Shown one piece after another: positions 41,567 to 64,000 of a stretch of 64,000 nucleotides of DNA. Positions within the stretch are counted from its first letter, which is position 1; the number at the start of each line of letters is the position of its first letter. The stretch is from Myxococcales bacterium (GTDB lineage: Bacteria > Desulfobacterota > Binatia > HRBIN30). The stretch covers positions 149,704-213,703 of the forward strand of contig JBBILD010000007.1 of NCBI GenBank assembly GCA_037445065.1. The letters are read 5' to 3'. The notes under the pieces were generated by a model. That model did no database searches. It was not told the origin of the DNA and was given only the letters and a program-made list of their open reading frames with translations. The position numbers and the translations under genes were made by a program.

Positions 41567-42410
41567 TTCCTGGGACATCCACTTGCCCTTCCCGGAGCTC
41601 CTTCCTGGGACACCCACTTGCCCTTCCTGGGACACCCACTTGGCCTTCCCCGTTGCTTCCAGGGGCACCCACCTTTGGGGGCACCGATGCCCGTAGCTCA
41701 GACCATCGTTCTCCGGACACCCACCGGGACGGGCGCGACCTGGCCGCCGGGCGAGTAGTGGCGGCCCTTGTGGCCCCCCGCGGTGCCGATGGCGAGCAGC
41801 CAGCGGCCAGCGCTAGGCGGGAGCAGCCAAGGGCGAATAGTGTGGGTCAGCCTCGTCAGGCACCAGTTCCGTTGGACACCCAACGCAGGCCCGCAGCCCA
41901 TGCTCCTGGGCTCCTTCGGACAGTATCCGCCCCAGGTACGACACCGCACGCACTAGAATGTCTTCCTCGTATTCGCGCACACCCACTCGTATTCGCGCGT
42001 ATTCTTGGACACCCCACTTGGGGGCTAAGGAGCACCACGACTGGACACCCACCCCGATGGCGCCACCACGAATGGACACCCACCCCGATGGCACTGATGC
42101 GCCAAGGGGAGACCATCGTTCTTGGGGCACCCACCCACGTTCTCTGGACACCCACCGGGAGCGGCACGACCTGCCCGCCGGACGCGTAGGGGCAGCCCTT
42201 GTGGCCGCCCGCGGTACGATTTGAACGTTCGTTGTTGCCCGGAAGGACACGCGGGAACAAGGCCGCCCCTACAACCCGTGCGCGAAGCACGCCCGCGGCG
42301 GGCGTTGGTCTCACTCCGGTGCCACCGCTACGCTTCCCCGCAACTTGTAGAGCACGCTGGGGAGGTTGGGAGGACACCCATTAGCAGGACGTTCGGAGGG
42401 CACCCACGAG
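41567..42410 (+). repeat. Intergenic cluster of GGACACCCAC decamers, cluster 1
   Basis: Exact copies at 41608, 41630, 41715, 42043, 42074 and 42146, plus several one-mismatch variants. Confidence 0.9.
42186..42272. repeat. GTAG-type REP doublet (REPIN-like)
   Basis: GTAGGGGCAGCCCTTGTGGCCGCCC at 42186 and an inverted partial copy ending ...ACAAGGCCGCCCCTAC at 42272. A further variant starts at about 41755. Confidence 0.75.
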
Positions 42411-42852
42411 GAGCAACCTGCTAGCGAAACCCCAACTGTCTGGGGGAGCCGTCGTGCGCCGCAATGCGCGTACCGAATGCCTCGTTCTGAGCCACCCGGC
42501 ACGCCATTTCAGGAGAAGCAGGCGACGGGCCTGTTTCTCTTCTGAACGCCAACCGCGAGGCACCGACTTTCAGGGGCAAGCAAAGCCCGGGCGGTGCGCC
42601 CGATTGCGTGCCCATTTTCAGCGCGCTTTGGTTAGTTGATGACCCGCTTCTACCTTTCCTCTCCGCCTGGGAAATGAATTCGCCGCGAAAAAGCTAGGGT
42701 TTGTCGGACAACCCGCATGCAAATCGAGACGACGGCCTCGACGGGACCCGTGGAGCAGCGGAGGGTGCGCACATGCGTTGCCCGGGGCGTGCGGATGGGA
42801 CCCTGGGGGCGGGGAGCTTCCTTACCTGGCAGCGTTTGTCTAGAGCCGGCCC

Positions 42853-43656
42853 ATGCCCTATGTGGAACGATCCGCTGTTCGCCTCCACTATGAAGACGAG
42901 GGTGAGGGCACGCCAGTGCTCTTGCTGCATGGCCTCGGTGGCAGTGCGCAGGTGTGGGACGAGCATATGCCGGCGTTTGCCAAGCACTATCGCGTGTTGC
43001 GGCCCGACCTGCGGGGGTTTGGCCAGTCGGGCCATCCGCCTGGGCCATACCGGGTGACGGACTTTGTCGACGACTTAGTGGTGATTCTCCGGGCCGCGGG
43101 GGTGGAAAAAGCGCACGTGCTCGGCATTTCGCTCGGGGGCGTGGTGGCCCAGCGACTGGCCCTGGATCAGCCGAAGCGGGTGCACTCGTTGGTTTTGGTT
43201 TCCACCTCGAGCGAGATCAGTGAGAAGGGCACTGCGACCTGGTTGAGACTCGCTGACTTGGTAGAAACCATGGGGTTCGACGGGCGCACCATTGACCCTC
43301 GCCGGTCGGTAGCGCCTCGGTTCGCGGAGCGGCATCCGGAGCGGCTCGAAGAGCTGGCCGAGCAAACGCGGCGCTGCGATCCGAAGGCGTACGCGGCTGC
43401 AGCGCGTGCCGTAGCGAGGTACCACTACACCGATGAGTTGCGGCACTTGCCGCATCCTGTGCTCATTTTGCAAGGGTTGGAGGACCAACTGACTCCGCCG
43501 GGAGGATCGGTCAAAATGGTGCGGGCCATTCCGCGCGCGCGCTTGTTGTTCGTTCCGGAGGCCGGCCACAACCTGCCCATGGAGCAGCCGCAAGCGTTTC
43601 AGTATGCCGTGCTCGGTTTCTGGGCTGGGGTGGACCTCGCTGCTCACGCTGTTTGA
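42853..43656 (+). CDS. Alpha/beta fold hydrolase (PcaD/MenH-like)
   Basis: LLHGLGG, DLRGFG, GISLGG, EDQLTP, AGHNL. Confidence 0.92.
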   Translation: MPYVERSAVRLHYEDEGEGTPVLLLHGLGGSAQVWDEHMPAFAKHYRVLRPDLRGFGQSGHPPGPYRVTDFVDDLVVILRAAGVEKAHVLGISLGGVVAQRLALDQPKRVHSLVLVSTSSEISEKGTATWLRLADLVETMGFDGRTIDPRRSVAPRFAERHPERLEELAEQTRRCDPKAYAAAARAVARYHYTDELRHLPHPVLILQGLEDQLTPPGGSVKMVRAIPRARLLFVPEAGHNLPMEQPQAFQYAVLGFWAGVDLAAHAV

Positions 43657-43693
43657 AAGAGGGAGAGAAAGGAGAGAAAGGAGAGAAGTAGGG

Positions 43694-44152
43694 ATGGACC
43701 GGCGCAAGTTGATCCAAATGACCCCGGAGGAACGGGCGGAATTTCTCGCAACGGCACGCACCGGGGCATTCTCGACCATCGATCCGTGGGGCTATCCGCA
43801 TACGGTCGCCATGTGGTTCTCCATGGACGGGGACAACGTAGTGATGACGACCTACGGAAAATCGCAGAAGGCGCGCAATGTGGAACGGAATCCCAAAGTG
43901 GCCTTCATGGTGGAGGCTGGTGACACATACGACACACTGCGCGGCGTGTTGATCCGCGGCCGAGCCGAGTTGGTGCGCGACCCGGGGTATACAGTCCAAG
44001 TGCTCAAGCGCATTCACGAGAAAATGCTAGGAGCGATCGCTCCGGGGATCGAGGAAGCGTTAGAGCGCCAAGCGCAAAAGCGCGTCGTAGTCCGGATCCA
44101 TCCCGAAAAAGTGAGCAGTTGGGATCACCGCAAACTGGGCGGCGGTTATTGA
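43694..44152 (+). CDS. Pyridoxamine 5'-phosphate oxidase-like (PPOX class, flavin/F420-binding) protein
   Basis: GYPHTVAMWF, KSQKARNVERNPKV, SWDHRKL. Confidence 0.88.
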   Translation: MDRRKLIQMTPEERAEFLATARTGAFSTIDPWGYPHTVAMWFSMDGDNVVMTTYGKSQKARNVERNPKVAFMVEAGDTYDTLRGVLIRGRAELVRDPGYTVQVLKRIHEKMLGAIAPGIEEALERQAQKRVVVRIHPEKVSSWDHRKLGGGY

Positions 44153-44224
44153 GCCGAGCTTTGCGTGGAAGGCGCAAAGCAGCGTTGAATTGGCTGGTGG
44201 GCAGGGGCATACAAGGCGGGCCTT

Positions 44225-61980: not shown

Positions 61981-62395
61981 CCTCACGCCGACGCCCGACT
62001 GCCAACAGTTTGGCCGGAACCCTGGCAACTCGCTCCCTGCGCGTAGCCGAGTGTGAACGGCACCACAGCACACGCGTCCTTAGTACCGGCGAGCAGCCAG
62101 CGGTGCGCGCCCCCCGGCGAATCGCGAATGGCTAACGGTGCGTCCGGCGGCACTTCCAACGACGGGGCGTAACGGCGTCTGGGAGAAGTTCGAAGGGAGC
62201 CCTTGTGGCTGCCCGTGGCTCCCCCGGCACCTGATTCGATCGTGCAGGCCGTGGTGCGGGGAACGCGCCGGCGCTGGACGGCGCGGCGCACACGGCCCGA
62301 TTTGGGCATTCGGTTCGATTTGCAACATGGGCAGGCACAAGTTCTGTCCTACGACCCGTTTGCGGCCACATGGGCAGGAGTGCCGCCTTCGGAGT

Positions 62396-62420
62396 GTAGG
62401 GGCGGCCCTTGTGGCCGCCC
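62396..62420 (+). repeat. GTAG-type REP
   Basis: GTAG-GGGCGGCC-CTTGT-GGCCGCCC with a perfect 8-bp stem; degenerate copy near 62193. Confidence 0.78.
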
Positions 62421-62470
62421 GTGGCTCGATTCGCCAGAACTCTCTGCAGCCTTCTGAGGAAGCCTTCTGA

Positions 62471-63437
62471 GGACACCCACTTTGTCCTGGCTTGTGCAAG
62501 AGGGACACCCACATTGTCCTCCCCCGCCCACGGCGAGATACCACGCCAGGTTCTGTGGAAGGTTCTGTGGACACCCACGTTCCCAGGACACCCACCTCAC
62601 GTCCTGAGGACACCCACTTTGTCCTCATGGGCCCTGGGTTGGATACCATGTCTGTTCGCGACCCGTTCCCTGCGTTCCCTGGACGTTCCCTGGACACCCA
62701 CCTTGTCCTTCCCGGGACACCCACTTTGCCGGCAGGTCGAGTGACCGGCGGGGGCGTCTCTGCGCGCCAGTGTGACCGCCACCACGCACGCTCCCAGTGT
62801 GTTCCGTGGACACCCACAATGTGCGACGCGTGCCCGATGCCACCGAACCCCTGCTGCCGTGGGCAAAACGCTACCGGCAGATTGGCTAGGGGGCGGCCCT
62901 TTCGCCCCTGCGAGCGCCCTCGCGAGGACGCCCCCTCCGGCGCACTTCCCCGTCATTTCGCCGAGATCCGACGTGCACCGAGCTGCTCTGGGAGTCAGTG
63001 CCGTGCGGGCGAGAAGTGAAGCTTAGGTGTGAACGACGGCCCTCCGCTCCGAAGCGAGGGAGCCAGCGAGCGGACAGGCGAACGGAAACTCGGGTTGCGA
63101 GCAACGAAACCGGTCAACGCTGAAGGTGGAAGCAATCTTGGCGCAACGAGAGCCCCGCTCCGTGGACACCGACTGCAGCGGCGAGCTTGATCCCGCCGCG
63201 CTTTCGTGGACGCTTTCGTGGACACCCACCGTAGCGGCCAGTTCGATTCGGCCGGCCCCAGTGCCGCGCGCGCCATCTGGCGCACTGCGCCTGCCCCGAA
63301 GACATCTTGTCCTGGACACCTCTCTCACCATCTGAGGAGCGCACCGTCTCCGCCATGTGAGGACCCCCTCCACAGAGCTGCACTGTCCGAGACTGCACTG
63401 TTTGGGCCGTCTGAGTGGGCCGTCTGAGGACACCCAT
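62471..63437 (+). repeat. Intergenic cluster of GGACACCCAC decamers, cluster 2
   Basis: Exact copies at 62471, 62503, 62569, 62586, 62608, 62692, 62715, 62808 and 63220, plus variants. Confidence 0.9.
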
Positions 63438-63543
63438 TTGGTCACTGCACGGCGCGTCGTGCGGGGCGGCGGCCGCGTCTGTTGCCGACCCCCTGTTTGC
63501 GCAGAGCGCCAGGGCGCGCCGTCGTGGTCCTTTGCGGTGCCGG

Positions 63544-64000
63544 CCAGCGATTCTTGCTGGCGACGACGCACGGCCGGTCACGAGGCCCGGCCCAGCCAAC
63601 TCTCGGAAAGGGGTATGACGGTCCAGCAACGCGCCACCCTGCGGGGTGGCGGCCGAAAACGGGGGCTCATGGACGGCACAGGGGTAGGTGCAGGGGCAAC
63701 TCGGCGGCCTCTGCGGTGGGTGTCCACGGAACGGGTGTCCGGGCGGTCCCCACAGTGGGTGTCCGCGCAACGCCAGCAGTGGGTGTCCGCGCAACGCCAG
63801 CAGTGGGTGTCCGCGCAACGCCAGCAGTGGGTGTCCACGCAACGCCGACCAGCGATTTCTGCTGGCGACGGAACACGGCCGGTCACGAGGCCCGGCCCAG
63901 CCAACTCTCGGAAAGGGGTATGACGGTCCAGCAACGCGCCACCCTGCGGGGTGGCGGCCGAAAACGGGGGCTCATGGGCGGCACAGGGGTAGGTGCAGGG
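63544..64000 (+). repeat. Near-identical direct repeat of about 150 bp, 305-bp offset
   Basis: 63544-63695 recurs at 63849-64000 with only a few substitutions; the second copy is cut by the window edge. Confidence 0.9.
63753..63846 (+). repeat. 24-bp tandem repeat (about 4 copies) containing the reverse decamer
   Basis: CAGTGGGTGTCCGCGCAACGCCAG repeated head to tail. Confidence 0.93.

Follow-up and report, generated by a model that had tools for sequence, protein, structure and literature searches.

Among the widespread RAYT-type Y1 HUH enzymes, only the subclasses that are paired with hairpin-forming repetitive extragenic palindromic (REP) sequences have a known DNA partner. What, then, do the REP-less Y1 enzymes act on, and how is DNA recognized without a hairpin? 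A 64,000-nucleotide (nt) stretch of the Myxococcales bacterium assembly GCA_037445065.1 (contig JBBILD010000007.1, positions 149,704 to 213,703, forward strand), which we analyzed in full and call the window, turns this into a question that can be tested at the bench. It holds a single HUH gene copy, at 50065-51105 on the plus strand, and a decamer, GGACACCCAC, that recurs on both sides of the gene. An earlier note, made from the letters of this DNA alone, had proposed that the enzyme recognizes the decamer and spreads it locally. Our analysis leads us to consider it likely that GGACACCCAC is the conserved nonpalindromic core of a DNA repeat belonging to this enzyme, multiplied by the mechanism that we set out below.

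Counting both strands, we found 48 exact copies of GGACACCCAC, all of them confined to 41608-63836; the count by eye had been about 48 between 41.6 and 63.8 kb. In dinucleotide-preserving shuffles the mean was 0.24 copies and the maximum 2, with 0 of 100 shuffles reaching 48, in agreement with the earlier estimate of less than one chance copy per window. Sites with at most one mismatch number 76. When the 10-mers of the window were collapsed by strand, the decamer stood at 48 copies and the next non-overlapping words at 9 or fewer. The 8-mer GACACCCA occurs 57 times in 41501-64000 versus 3 times in 1-41500. Before 41.5 kb there are five sites, every one with a single mismatch (9703, 27791, 35211, 38899, and 40584); the earlier note was right that no exact copy lies there, and had given three of these five. 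Since the DNA of the first 41.5 kb is densely coding, permissive sites are few there, which may account for part of the scarcity. Between 54811 and 62470 we found no decamer and no copy of the tested 8-mers GACACCCA and ACACCCAC, and this interval contains the 55.7-62 kb described before as motif free. The window terminates within the motif-rich region, so the right edge of that region lies beyond it.

The core itself is nonpalindromic, and its copies are oriented in blocks, which a recount reproduced. By copy starts, the blocks are forward to 49448, reverse at 49825-49913, forward at 51390-51416, reverse at 51573-53190, forward at 53636-63428, and reverse at 63716-63827. A logo of the window copies anchored on ACACCCA showed conservation stopping at the core edges, as expected from flanks that had been called different: the two preceding positions are G in 87% and G in 95% of copies, the following position is C in 90%, and other flank positions reach at most 57%. 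The base preceding the core is G in 30% of the copies. The local duplications pointed out earlier are real as well. Tandem Repeats Finder gave periods of 11-31 nt around the window copies, and same-strand spacings of up to 60 nt between copies range from 15 to 60 nt.

The gene at 50065-51105 is intact and encodes a HUH/Tyr (Y1) enzyme of 346 amino acids (aa), of the TnpA_Y1 subclass 2.3 type. Its HuH motif is N85-H86-M87-H88, and it has W169-E170 and Y190-V-E-L-N194-P195 (YVELNP). In an alignment of 33 homologs, N85, H88, Y190, and N194 are invariant, H86 and P195 are at least 90% conserved, and the consensus reads MSNHFHLVL, RFWEGRF, and YVDLNP. The enzyme is a distant member of the HUH/Tyr (Y1) superfamily that curated profiles see weakly: Pfam Y1_Tnp matched with an E value of 0.0021 and 18.6 bits, below its cut-off of 23 bits, and NCBIfam REP_Tyr_transpos with 48.4 bits, below its cut-off of 80. 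The homologs number more than 7,900, with lengths of about 320 aa, and source records name some of them RayT or transposase; one that is 95% identical (P0001) lies on a 402-kb contig. We modeled the enzyme with AlphaFold2 (pLDDT 87.2) and searched the fold with Foldseek. The top match was 4er8_A, a RAYT bound to REP DNA (E value of 1.8e-4, TM score of 0.57 on the target), and IS200/IS605 TnpA structures came next; the best Rep structure, 6we1, ranked 36 with an E value of 0.35. A sequence-profile search of the PDB with the enzyme gave 0 matches. In the model, helices at 95-162 stand between the strands 86-93 and 173-178, and a helical tail spans 211-345. Judged by motifs, homologs, and a predicted fold nearest to 4er8, the HUH (RAYT-like) transposase seen in the earlier note is a real gene. 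Its GC content is 0.59 versus 0.64 in the surroundings, and it is preceded by an AT-rich leader at 49940-50064 (plus strand; GC 0.38, window 0.64) that ends in a strong ribosome-binding site, AAGGAGG, 5 nt before the ATG.

If the decamer belongs to the enzyme, where else do the two occur together? We scanned a genome collection for two decamers 5-35 nt apart and obtained at least 128 loci in at least 123 distinct regions; 10-kb flanks were retrieved for 80 of the at least 128 loci. These loci were chosen on the decamer itself, and frequencies among them are not genome-wide estimates. By record title, many of the matches listed come from Gammaproteobacteria (e.g., Pseudohongiella, Pseudomonadales, and Lysobacterales), and further ones come from Acidobacteriota, Planctomycetota, a Binatia genome, several Actinomycetota, and other groups. 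Many are tandem arrays in which the decamer is constant and the spacer differs between genomes and between arrays. Each array that we inspected repeats the core together with its own flank, and a logo of 719 unique contexts holds no information outside the 10 nt. Some two-copy matches, e.g., in Streptomyces, are probably chance or coding repeats.

Using the window enzyme as a tblastn query, we found a match in 22 of the 128 loci listed, or 18 of 123 regions after merging five overlapping pairs. Among the listed regions of at least 10 kb, a homolog was present in 13 of the 32 with four or more copies and in 1 of the 21 with two or three copies; regions of 1-10 kb had a homolog in 1 of 20 cases, and stubs below 1 kb in 3 of 50. 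The homologs beside the same core in other phyla are 34-58% identical to the window enzyme among the matches listed, and at several inspected loci no more than a few hundred bases separate the gene from an array. When the open reading frames (ORFs) of the listed loci were clustered all against all, the enzyme was the only recurring family, with 16 loci; the next non-overlapping family, a generic ATPase, had 7. At least two other genomes (L022/L023 and L049/L050) have the 10-20 kb around a homolog peppered with copies in a similar way, and L061 arguably does too. The latter locus, from Acanthopleuribacter pedis, also has the densest array outside the window, with 20 decamers in 760 nt (10001-10758), 7 forward and then 13 reverse, made of several unit types that are each repeated 2-4 times. 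The L061 homolog lies 7.5 kb from that array, beside a smaller mixed one.

The arrangement of cores around the gene provides a second line of evidence. At 28 homolog loci, 52 copies of the 8-mer GACACCCA within 1 kb upstream are oriented as the gene versus 4 opposite to it, and within 1.5 kb downstream 37 are opposite versus 10 gene-oriented, these figures being counts of copies and not of independent events. The family norm is that upstream cores point as the gene does and downstream cores are inverted. We then examined a sample picked by the protein only, from a tblastn search of a plasmid collection that gave 13 records, mostly marine gammaproteobacterial chromids; 10 were analyzed. This protein-based search matched mostly Alteromonadales and Vibrionales. 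GACACCCA lies upstream in gene orientation in 6 of the 10 loci and inverted downstream in 4 of the 10, at an expected level, estimated by arithmetic, of about 0.015 per kb per strand. In two Vibrionaceae loci, on Photobacterium and Vibrio plasmid or chromid records, a variant core, GGACAG[AGT]CA, replaces GGACACCCAC: one locus (L137) has 5 copies upstream (plus) and 4 downstream (minus), and the other (L134) has 1 upstream (plus) and 5 downstream (minus). The core or the co-varying core is in the norm layout in 8 of the 10 protein-picked loci, and some core copy is present in 9; L136 has neither GACACCCA nor the variant. Arrays were found in 0 of the 10. Furthermore, at two Pseudoalteromonas loci in different genomic contexts, DNA similarity runs from the upstream core to the stop codon.

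The earlier note had asked whether homologous transposases in other genomes are flanked by the same or a co-varying decamer, and in this small sample 8 of 10 loci answer that they are. Since the core lies beside homologs in other phyla, the enzyme is the only recurring gene family at the decamer loci, and the same layout appears in the protein-picked sample, the decamer can be regarded as the cognate sequence of the enzyme family; to this extent the earlier proposal is supported. The link between enzyme and decamer thus appears well supported by sequence comparison.

Two peculiarities of the homologs may be recorded here. In three Pseudoalteromonas loci (L130, L133, and L135, at about 10212-10215), the codons of the HuH motif, N-H-T-H (AAT CAC ACC CAC), contain ACACCCAC, so that eight bases of the core stand within the enzyme's own active-site codons; this is probably a coincidence. 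In an Aeromonas caviae record (L132, about 10163-10636), the match to the homolog is split in two, the gene contains some 60 nt twice, 412 nt apart, and it also contains an exact decamer at 10343; the internal duplication may disrupt this gene.

We then considered the duplications that adjoin the cores. Counting only those without a complete decamer inside, the window and the scan loci gave 261 exact tandem duplications close to cores; 48 loci contributed, and periods are mostly 7-16 nt. Measured from the core start, 72 right ends fall into the 6-nt bin from -2 to +3 and 23 into the bin from +4 to +9, with 0-8 in the other bins, those from +10 to +21 being empty by construction. The mode is +3, which corresponds to [flank-GGA][flank-GGA]CACCCAC. 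Duplications on the 3' side of the core showed no sharp edge. Random slippage would not put duplication ends at GGA/CACCCAC, and the sharp end there suggests a nick or a replication block at this position. The pattern is readily seen in the window. At 62448-62473 (plus strand), the partial unit AGCCTTCTGAGGA is present twice and is followed directly by CACCCAC, the same arrangement recurs at 62548-62571 (12 nt), 62664-62695 (11 nt), and 63199-63223 (12 nt), and the core at 63428 comes directly after a 13-nt duplication (63403-63428).

Where have the window copies come to lie? Thirty of the 48 exact copies sit in four long stretches without a recognizable gene, at about 41.3-42.85, 49.13-50.06, 51.1-53.0, and 62.0-64.0 kb, and the ORFs in these stretches have no Pfam match. 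The other 18 are inside three genes for secreted proteins, which we call PT1 to PT3, with 15 in linkers and 3 in the N-terminal part of PT3. PT1 (44225-46321, plus strand) has a dockerin-like N terminus and a Pro/Thr linker; its 4 exact and 5 one-mismatch cores share one frame, NGG ACA CCC ACN, read as x-T-P-T, and one core lies within an in-frame 27-nt tandem duplication (44643-44696). The cores of its paralog PT2 (46318-49131, plus strand), 8 exact and 3 with one mismatch, all keep to the x-T-P-T frame. PT3 (53059-55659, plus strand; start uncertain, with an ORF open from 52819) is a paralog of both. Its linker carries 3 exact and 2 one-mismatch forward cores in the x-T-P-T frame, and in its signal-peptide/N-terminal region the reverse cores at 53085, 53121, and 53190 read W-V-S.

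Pro/Thr codons could produce such words by themselves, so we shuffled synonymous codons within each linker, which keeps the protein sequence and preserves linker codon usage. The observed counts were 4 for PT1, 8 for PT2, and 3 for PT3, versus means of 0.30, 0.48, and 0.10, and for each of the three genes 0 of 2000 shuffles reached the observed core count. A Pro/Thr codon artifact as the source of the linker copies is ruled out by these synonymous-codon shuffles and by codon-order shuffles. Tandem units within the genes measure 27 and 24 nt, both divisible by three; those outside span 11-31 nt and do not favor such lengths. Codon reading also accounts for the orientation blocks within the genes, because only the forward word reads T-P-T and only the reverse word fits the hydrophobic W-V-S; here the blocks follow coding constraint. 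In other genomes, 102 ORFs of at least 250 aa overlap copies, a list that overlapping spurious GC-rich frames make uninterpretable, and a Binatia scan locus (L084) has two copies inside a linker-like ACN-CCN repeat.

The three PT proteins have in common an N-terminal Cys with a D-x-N-x-D-G-R-x-S-x-A-D-L motif of dockerin/EF-hand type, a Pro/Thr linker of 390-815 aa, and a C-terminal domain of about 190 aa that looks conserved by eye. Homologs occur in Binatia, Deltaproteobacteria, and other metagenome-assembled genomes, some with the Pfam dockerin domain PF00404. A close PT3 ortholog for a comparison of filled and empty sites was not found, the best match being 52% identical over 32% of the query.

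The remaining copies form arrays of several kinds. In DNA without a recognizable gene, forward arrays at 41573-42407 (plus strand) hold 6 exact and 7 one-mismatch cores in tandem units of 22, 31, and 21 nt, and they include an 83-nt segment that is present twice, 431 nt apart; the ORF at 41323-42189 has no Pfam match. A lone forward core at 49448-49457 lies within a 17-nt imperfect tandem repeat. Nearer to the enzyme gene, four reverse cores in 20-nt units (49825-49922; 2 exact, 2 one-mismatch) stand 143-240 nt upstream of the start, and two forward cores (51390-51425) stand 285-320 nt downstream of the stop. Four further reverse cores (51573-51670, 3 exact) include the perfect 15-nt tandem AGTGGGTGTCCACTA, present twice, and three more (52697-52951, 2 exact, 27-nt units) lie upstream of PT3. 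At the far end, eight exact forward cores occupy 62471-62817, again in DNA without a recognizable gene; several are followed by TTGTCC and form a local stem of 5-6 bp. Three forward cores (1 exact) follow at 63164-63437, and five exact reverse cores at 63716-63836, four of which form a 24-nt tandem array of 3.9 copies with 98% matches. Tandem duplication is evidently one source of copies. Units at 41.6 kb and others at 62.6-62.7 kb, a distance of 21 kb, also have similar flanks and are 72-74% identical.

At 63539-64000, a 157-nt segment is repeated with 96% identity at 305-nt spacing, the 24-nt decamer array lying between the copies; the repeat runs past the window end, and a larger tandem structure may continue beyond it. 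Two other parts of the window drew our attention. Four consecutive paralogous genes at 55725-60740 (433, 443, 346, and 422 aa) encode proteins with signal-peptide-like N termini and motifs that recur by eye, e.g., YPKV and HCFYVN; they have no Pfam or NCBIfam match and contain zero decamers. At 28001-34000 the AT skew is 0.17-0.22, unique within the window, and coincides with a run of minus-strand ORFs.

The decamer had been called unlike classical hairpin REPs, and folding bears this out. Nine array segments folded as single-stranded DNA gave z scores from +1.22 to -2.82, and we found among the nine no shared hairpin, no REP-like structure, and no origin-like hairpin. Small local stems (AGTGG-N4-CCACT and AGGACA-N7-TGTCCT) occur in some arrays and are not general. 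The pattern GTAGGGGCNGCC, which stands for the classical GTAG REP, matched 33 times in the window with up to two mismatches, versus 34.6 expected. Rfam at gathering thresholds gave 0 matches over the whole window, and with the idea of an island boundary in mind we looked for tRNA genes in the window and found none.

The window does contain a classical-looking REP of another kind, with a GTAG head and the palindrome GGGCGGCC-CTTGT-GGCCGCCC. Exact copies lie at 42186-42210 (plus), 42248-42272 (minus), and 62396-62420 (plus), and one with a single mismatch lies at 41755; the copy within 62385-62425 forms a perfect 8-bp hairpin (z score of -2.78). All of these copies are beside decamer arrays, and two are inside the 83-nt segment duplicated 431 nt apart. 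We considered this REP as the enzyme's partner and rejected it: none of its three exact copies, which form a real hairpin, flanks the gene. Its partner may be a separate RAYT of the classical kind, encoded elsewhere in the genome.

The observed enrichment, cross-phylum association, layout, covariation, coding-DNA excess, and sharp duplication boundary leave the route by which new copies arise, local spread included, to be inferred. In the mechanism that we propose, the enzyme would recognize the core by its sequence and not via a hairpin. It would nick DNA, or block replication, at the 5' edge of the core (GGA/CACCCAC), where polymerase restarts or strand rejoining would create short tandem duplications adjoining the core. 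Exchange between neighboring cores would then expand these duplications into arrays, and core-bearing segments would occasionally be copied or converted into nearby permissive DNA. Within the PT genes, selection would have kept only the in-frame copies, as T-P-T in the linker or W-V-S in the signal-peptide region. In GC-rich lineages the cores have been amplified to tandem arrays that share the core alone, each array having spacers of its own, and in this window the process appears to have gone unusually far.

A bolder version of this mechanism is tentative, and we think it somewhat doubtful: subclass 2.3 enzymes might be hairpin-independent "motif writers" whose nicks at GGA/CACCCAC seed microduplications and short-patch conversions that copy the 10-nt word. 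If so, they would copy a word, and not a bounded element, into neighboring DNA, including linkers and signal peptides. The neighborhood of the enzyme would become saturated with its own recognition site, and proteins would be reshaped as a side effect. Such propagation would be distinct from cut-and-paste or peel-and-paste and would be conserved from Gammaproteobacteria to Acidobacteriota and Binatia-like bacteria.

Several observations weigh against assigning the decamer to the enzyme in this manner. The window itself departs from the family norm, with the nearest upstream cores reversed and the first downstream cores forward; its flanks are inverted relative to each other in the sense opposite to the norm. 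(An inversion between the flanking arrays was considered as the cause and rejected by reasoning, because flipping a segment between inverted repeats restores the same layout.) The leader at 49940-50064 has no core, though in homologs a core is usually present 70-120 nt before the start. The scan, as said, was selected on the decamer, and in 19 of the 32 listed regions of at least 10 kb with at least four copies the DNA retrieved contains no homolog. The same genomes also have arrays on further contigs, or at distances of hundreds of kb, far from detected homologs. Homolog-free array regions would imply action in trans or relic arrays. Homolog loci of low GC lack arrays and have one or two cores, so amplification is not constant in the family. 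Duplication ends also fall at 0, +1, and +2 (13, 15, and 9 cases), that is, at no single position, and a bound protein that blocks replication would give the same boundary without cleavage. In the N-terminal alignment of PT1-PT3, the PT3 copy at 53190 aligns gap-free to TTGGGTGGGG of PT2. Because of this gap-free alignment, at least one coding copy arose by base replacement (conversion or selected point changes) and not by insertion, and a simple cut-and-paste model does not explain it. Finally, binding and cleavage by the enzyme are deduced from sequence patterns only.

Some of these points would sit well with a protein that only binds the core. The arrays would then be the iteron-like sites of a domesticated enzyme, serving its own promoter or DNA organization, and slippage with selection would have built them while nothing was mobilized. 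Indeed, at the inspected loci L017, L023, L052, and L056 the arrays lie directly upstream of the gene start, a promoter-like place, low-GC homologs have just one or two cores per side, and a tightly bound protein stalling polymerase could give the sharp boundary at the core 5' edge. We nevertheless hold this explanation to be unlikely. The copies inside neighboring genes exceed the codon-shuffle level and reach up to 13 kb from the gene in the window, and arrays occur elsewhere, on contigs or at chromosome positions without a nearby homolog. Across the 33 homologs the catalytic His and Tyr vary little or not at all, which is unexpected for a binding-only protein, and the available text of PMC6006769 describes for the subclass more than five gene copies per genome and recent spread in some orders.

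Alternatively, the arrays could come from another process, and an IS-like HUH element could have inserted into or beside the decamer, in the manner of REP-targeting insertion sequences; ISPpu9 is reported, in the part of PMC8450116 available to us, to be inserted into REP sequences. The gene, with its AT-rich leader (GC 0.38) and a GC of 0.59 versus 0.64, lies between arrays that are off the family layout and looks like a later arrival in a region already holding arrays. Array-free genomes, however, still show single inverted cores on both sides at similar distances, the Vibrionaceae homologs have the same layout with a different core that co-varies, and the similarity of two loci in different contexts starts at the upstream core. 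Because of these three features, the cores fit a part of the unit and not its target, and we regard mere target-site preference as quite improbable. Most improbable of all is that composition or an unrelated function accounts for the decamer, as a by-product of Pro/Thr codons or as the site of a regulator that has nothing to do with the HUH gene. It is true that 15 of the 48 copies read x-T-P-T in Pro/Thr linkers and that the Binatia locus L084 has its two copies in a linker-like repeat, but 30 of the 48 are outside the linker genes, none of the shuffles that preserve protein and linker codon usage came up to the observed count for PT1, PT2, or PT3, and among the listed loci no other gene family recurs near arrays.

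If GGACACCCAC is indeed the core of a repeat that belongs to the enzyme, subclass 2.3 gains a candidate partner: a sharply bounded nonpalindromic 10-mer that is shared across phyla, has a co-varying variant in Vibrionaceae, and contains within itself a candidate processing site. A short enzyme-linked repeat that enters coding DNA in frame would also bear on the evolution of low-complexity linkers and signal peptides. Since many of the listed scan matches are at or near contig ends, the arrays probably break metagenome assemblies, and they probably inflate spurious ORFs. We see a realistic chance that this is a new way for HUH enzymes to multiply short DNA words. A search for literature that links the decamer or the core to a tyrosine transposase or to subclass 2.3 repeats found none, subscription journals and figures lying outside that search, and the papers containing the decamer string, among the matches listed, all look unrelated to bacterial repeats by title or abstract.

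How does this system compare with known ones? Elements of the IS200/IS605 type, such as IS608 and ISDra2, work by single-stranded DNA chemistry and cleave at a short specific sequence beside a recognized element; they have subterminal hairpins on one strand, no inverted ends, near-identical multiple copies, and a transposase of about 150 aa. Our enzyme belongs to the same catalytic superfamily, whereas the subterminal hairpins, the near-identical copies (the window has one gene copy), and the short transposase are not seen here. Ogata and colleagues are said to have described, in 2000, Rickettsia palindromic elements that lie in frame within protein-coding genes, where the segment accommodates extra residues. 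Those elements are palindromic and about 100-150 nt long and have, to our knowledge, no dedicated enzyme. The decamer resembles them as a short repeat in frame in coding genes and differs in its unit of 10 nt plus spacer and in having at least one coding copy that arose by replacement. Unlike a rolling-circle Rep protein with its iterons, the enzyme has the fold and motifs of a Y1 transposase, and an origin-like hairpin is absent from the folded arrays.

Closer to hand are the REP/RAYT systems (REPtrons, REPINs, and E. coli TnpA_REP, structure 4ER8). Shared features are the Y1 HUH chemistry motifs, Y-x-x-x-N-P, the inverted bracketing of the gene (across the family, the window having the opposite sense), a dispersed repeat, and the fold. 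In contrast to them, we find no GTAG-headed palindrome or common hairpin as the partner, a 10-nt tandem word replaces the 20-40 nt stem-loop or inverted doublet, and the protein has double the length and fails to reach the NCBIfam RAYT cut-off. Y-x-x-x-N-P is the class 2 signature, and subclass 2.3, nested within the subclass 2.1 that is home to most TIRYTs, is described with a median length of 325 aa, the motifs NHYH, WE, and YVDLNP, an insertion of about 55 aa between beta3 and alphaC, and a two-part C-terminal tail; it is entered as "REP: no," with no associated repeat reported in the available text (Quentin, Siguier, Chandler, and Fichant 2018, PMC6006769). The window enzyme agrees with this partial description in its 346 aa (homologs about 316-335), NHMH (NHFH in the consensus), WE, and YVELNP, as well as in the lack of flanking REP hairpins; the long insertion between HuH and the next core strand and the long C-terminal tail of its model may correspond to those of the subclass. 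It departs from the subclass, as described there, in the conserved 8-10 nt core inverted around the gene and in the tandem arrays of GC-rich lineages. Judging from record titles, family members also occur in Acidobacteriota and Binatia-like genomes, which lie outside the orders given for subclass 2.3 in that text.

The closest described systems, as far as the available text of their description goes, are the TIRtrons, or TIRYT, in which RAYT-like genes are flanked by terminal inverted repeats (TIRs) that are not REPs; some TIRs form moderately abundant families in dimers or clusters, and many share GGGGWSAS (Di Nocera, De Gregorio, and Rocco 2013, PMC3733652). Like them, our enzyme family has its gene flanked by non-REP inverted repeats, by the orientation counts at 28 loci. 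Their motif GGGGWSAS resembles (G)GGACAC, in that GGACAC fits its last six positions, four G's not being the rule here. What sets the present system apart from TIRYT as so described is a sharply bounded 10-mer, the same word in distant phyla, direct tandem arrays with array-specific spacers, and entry into coding DNA.

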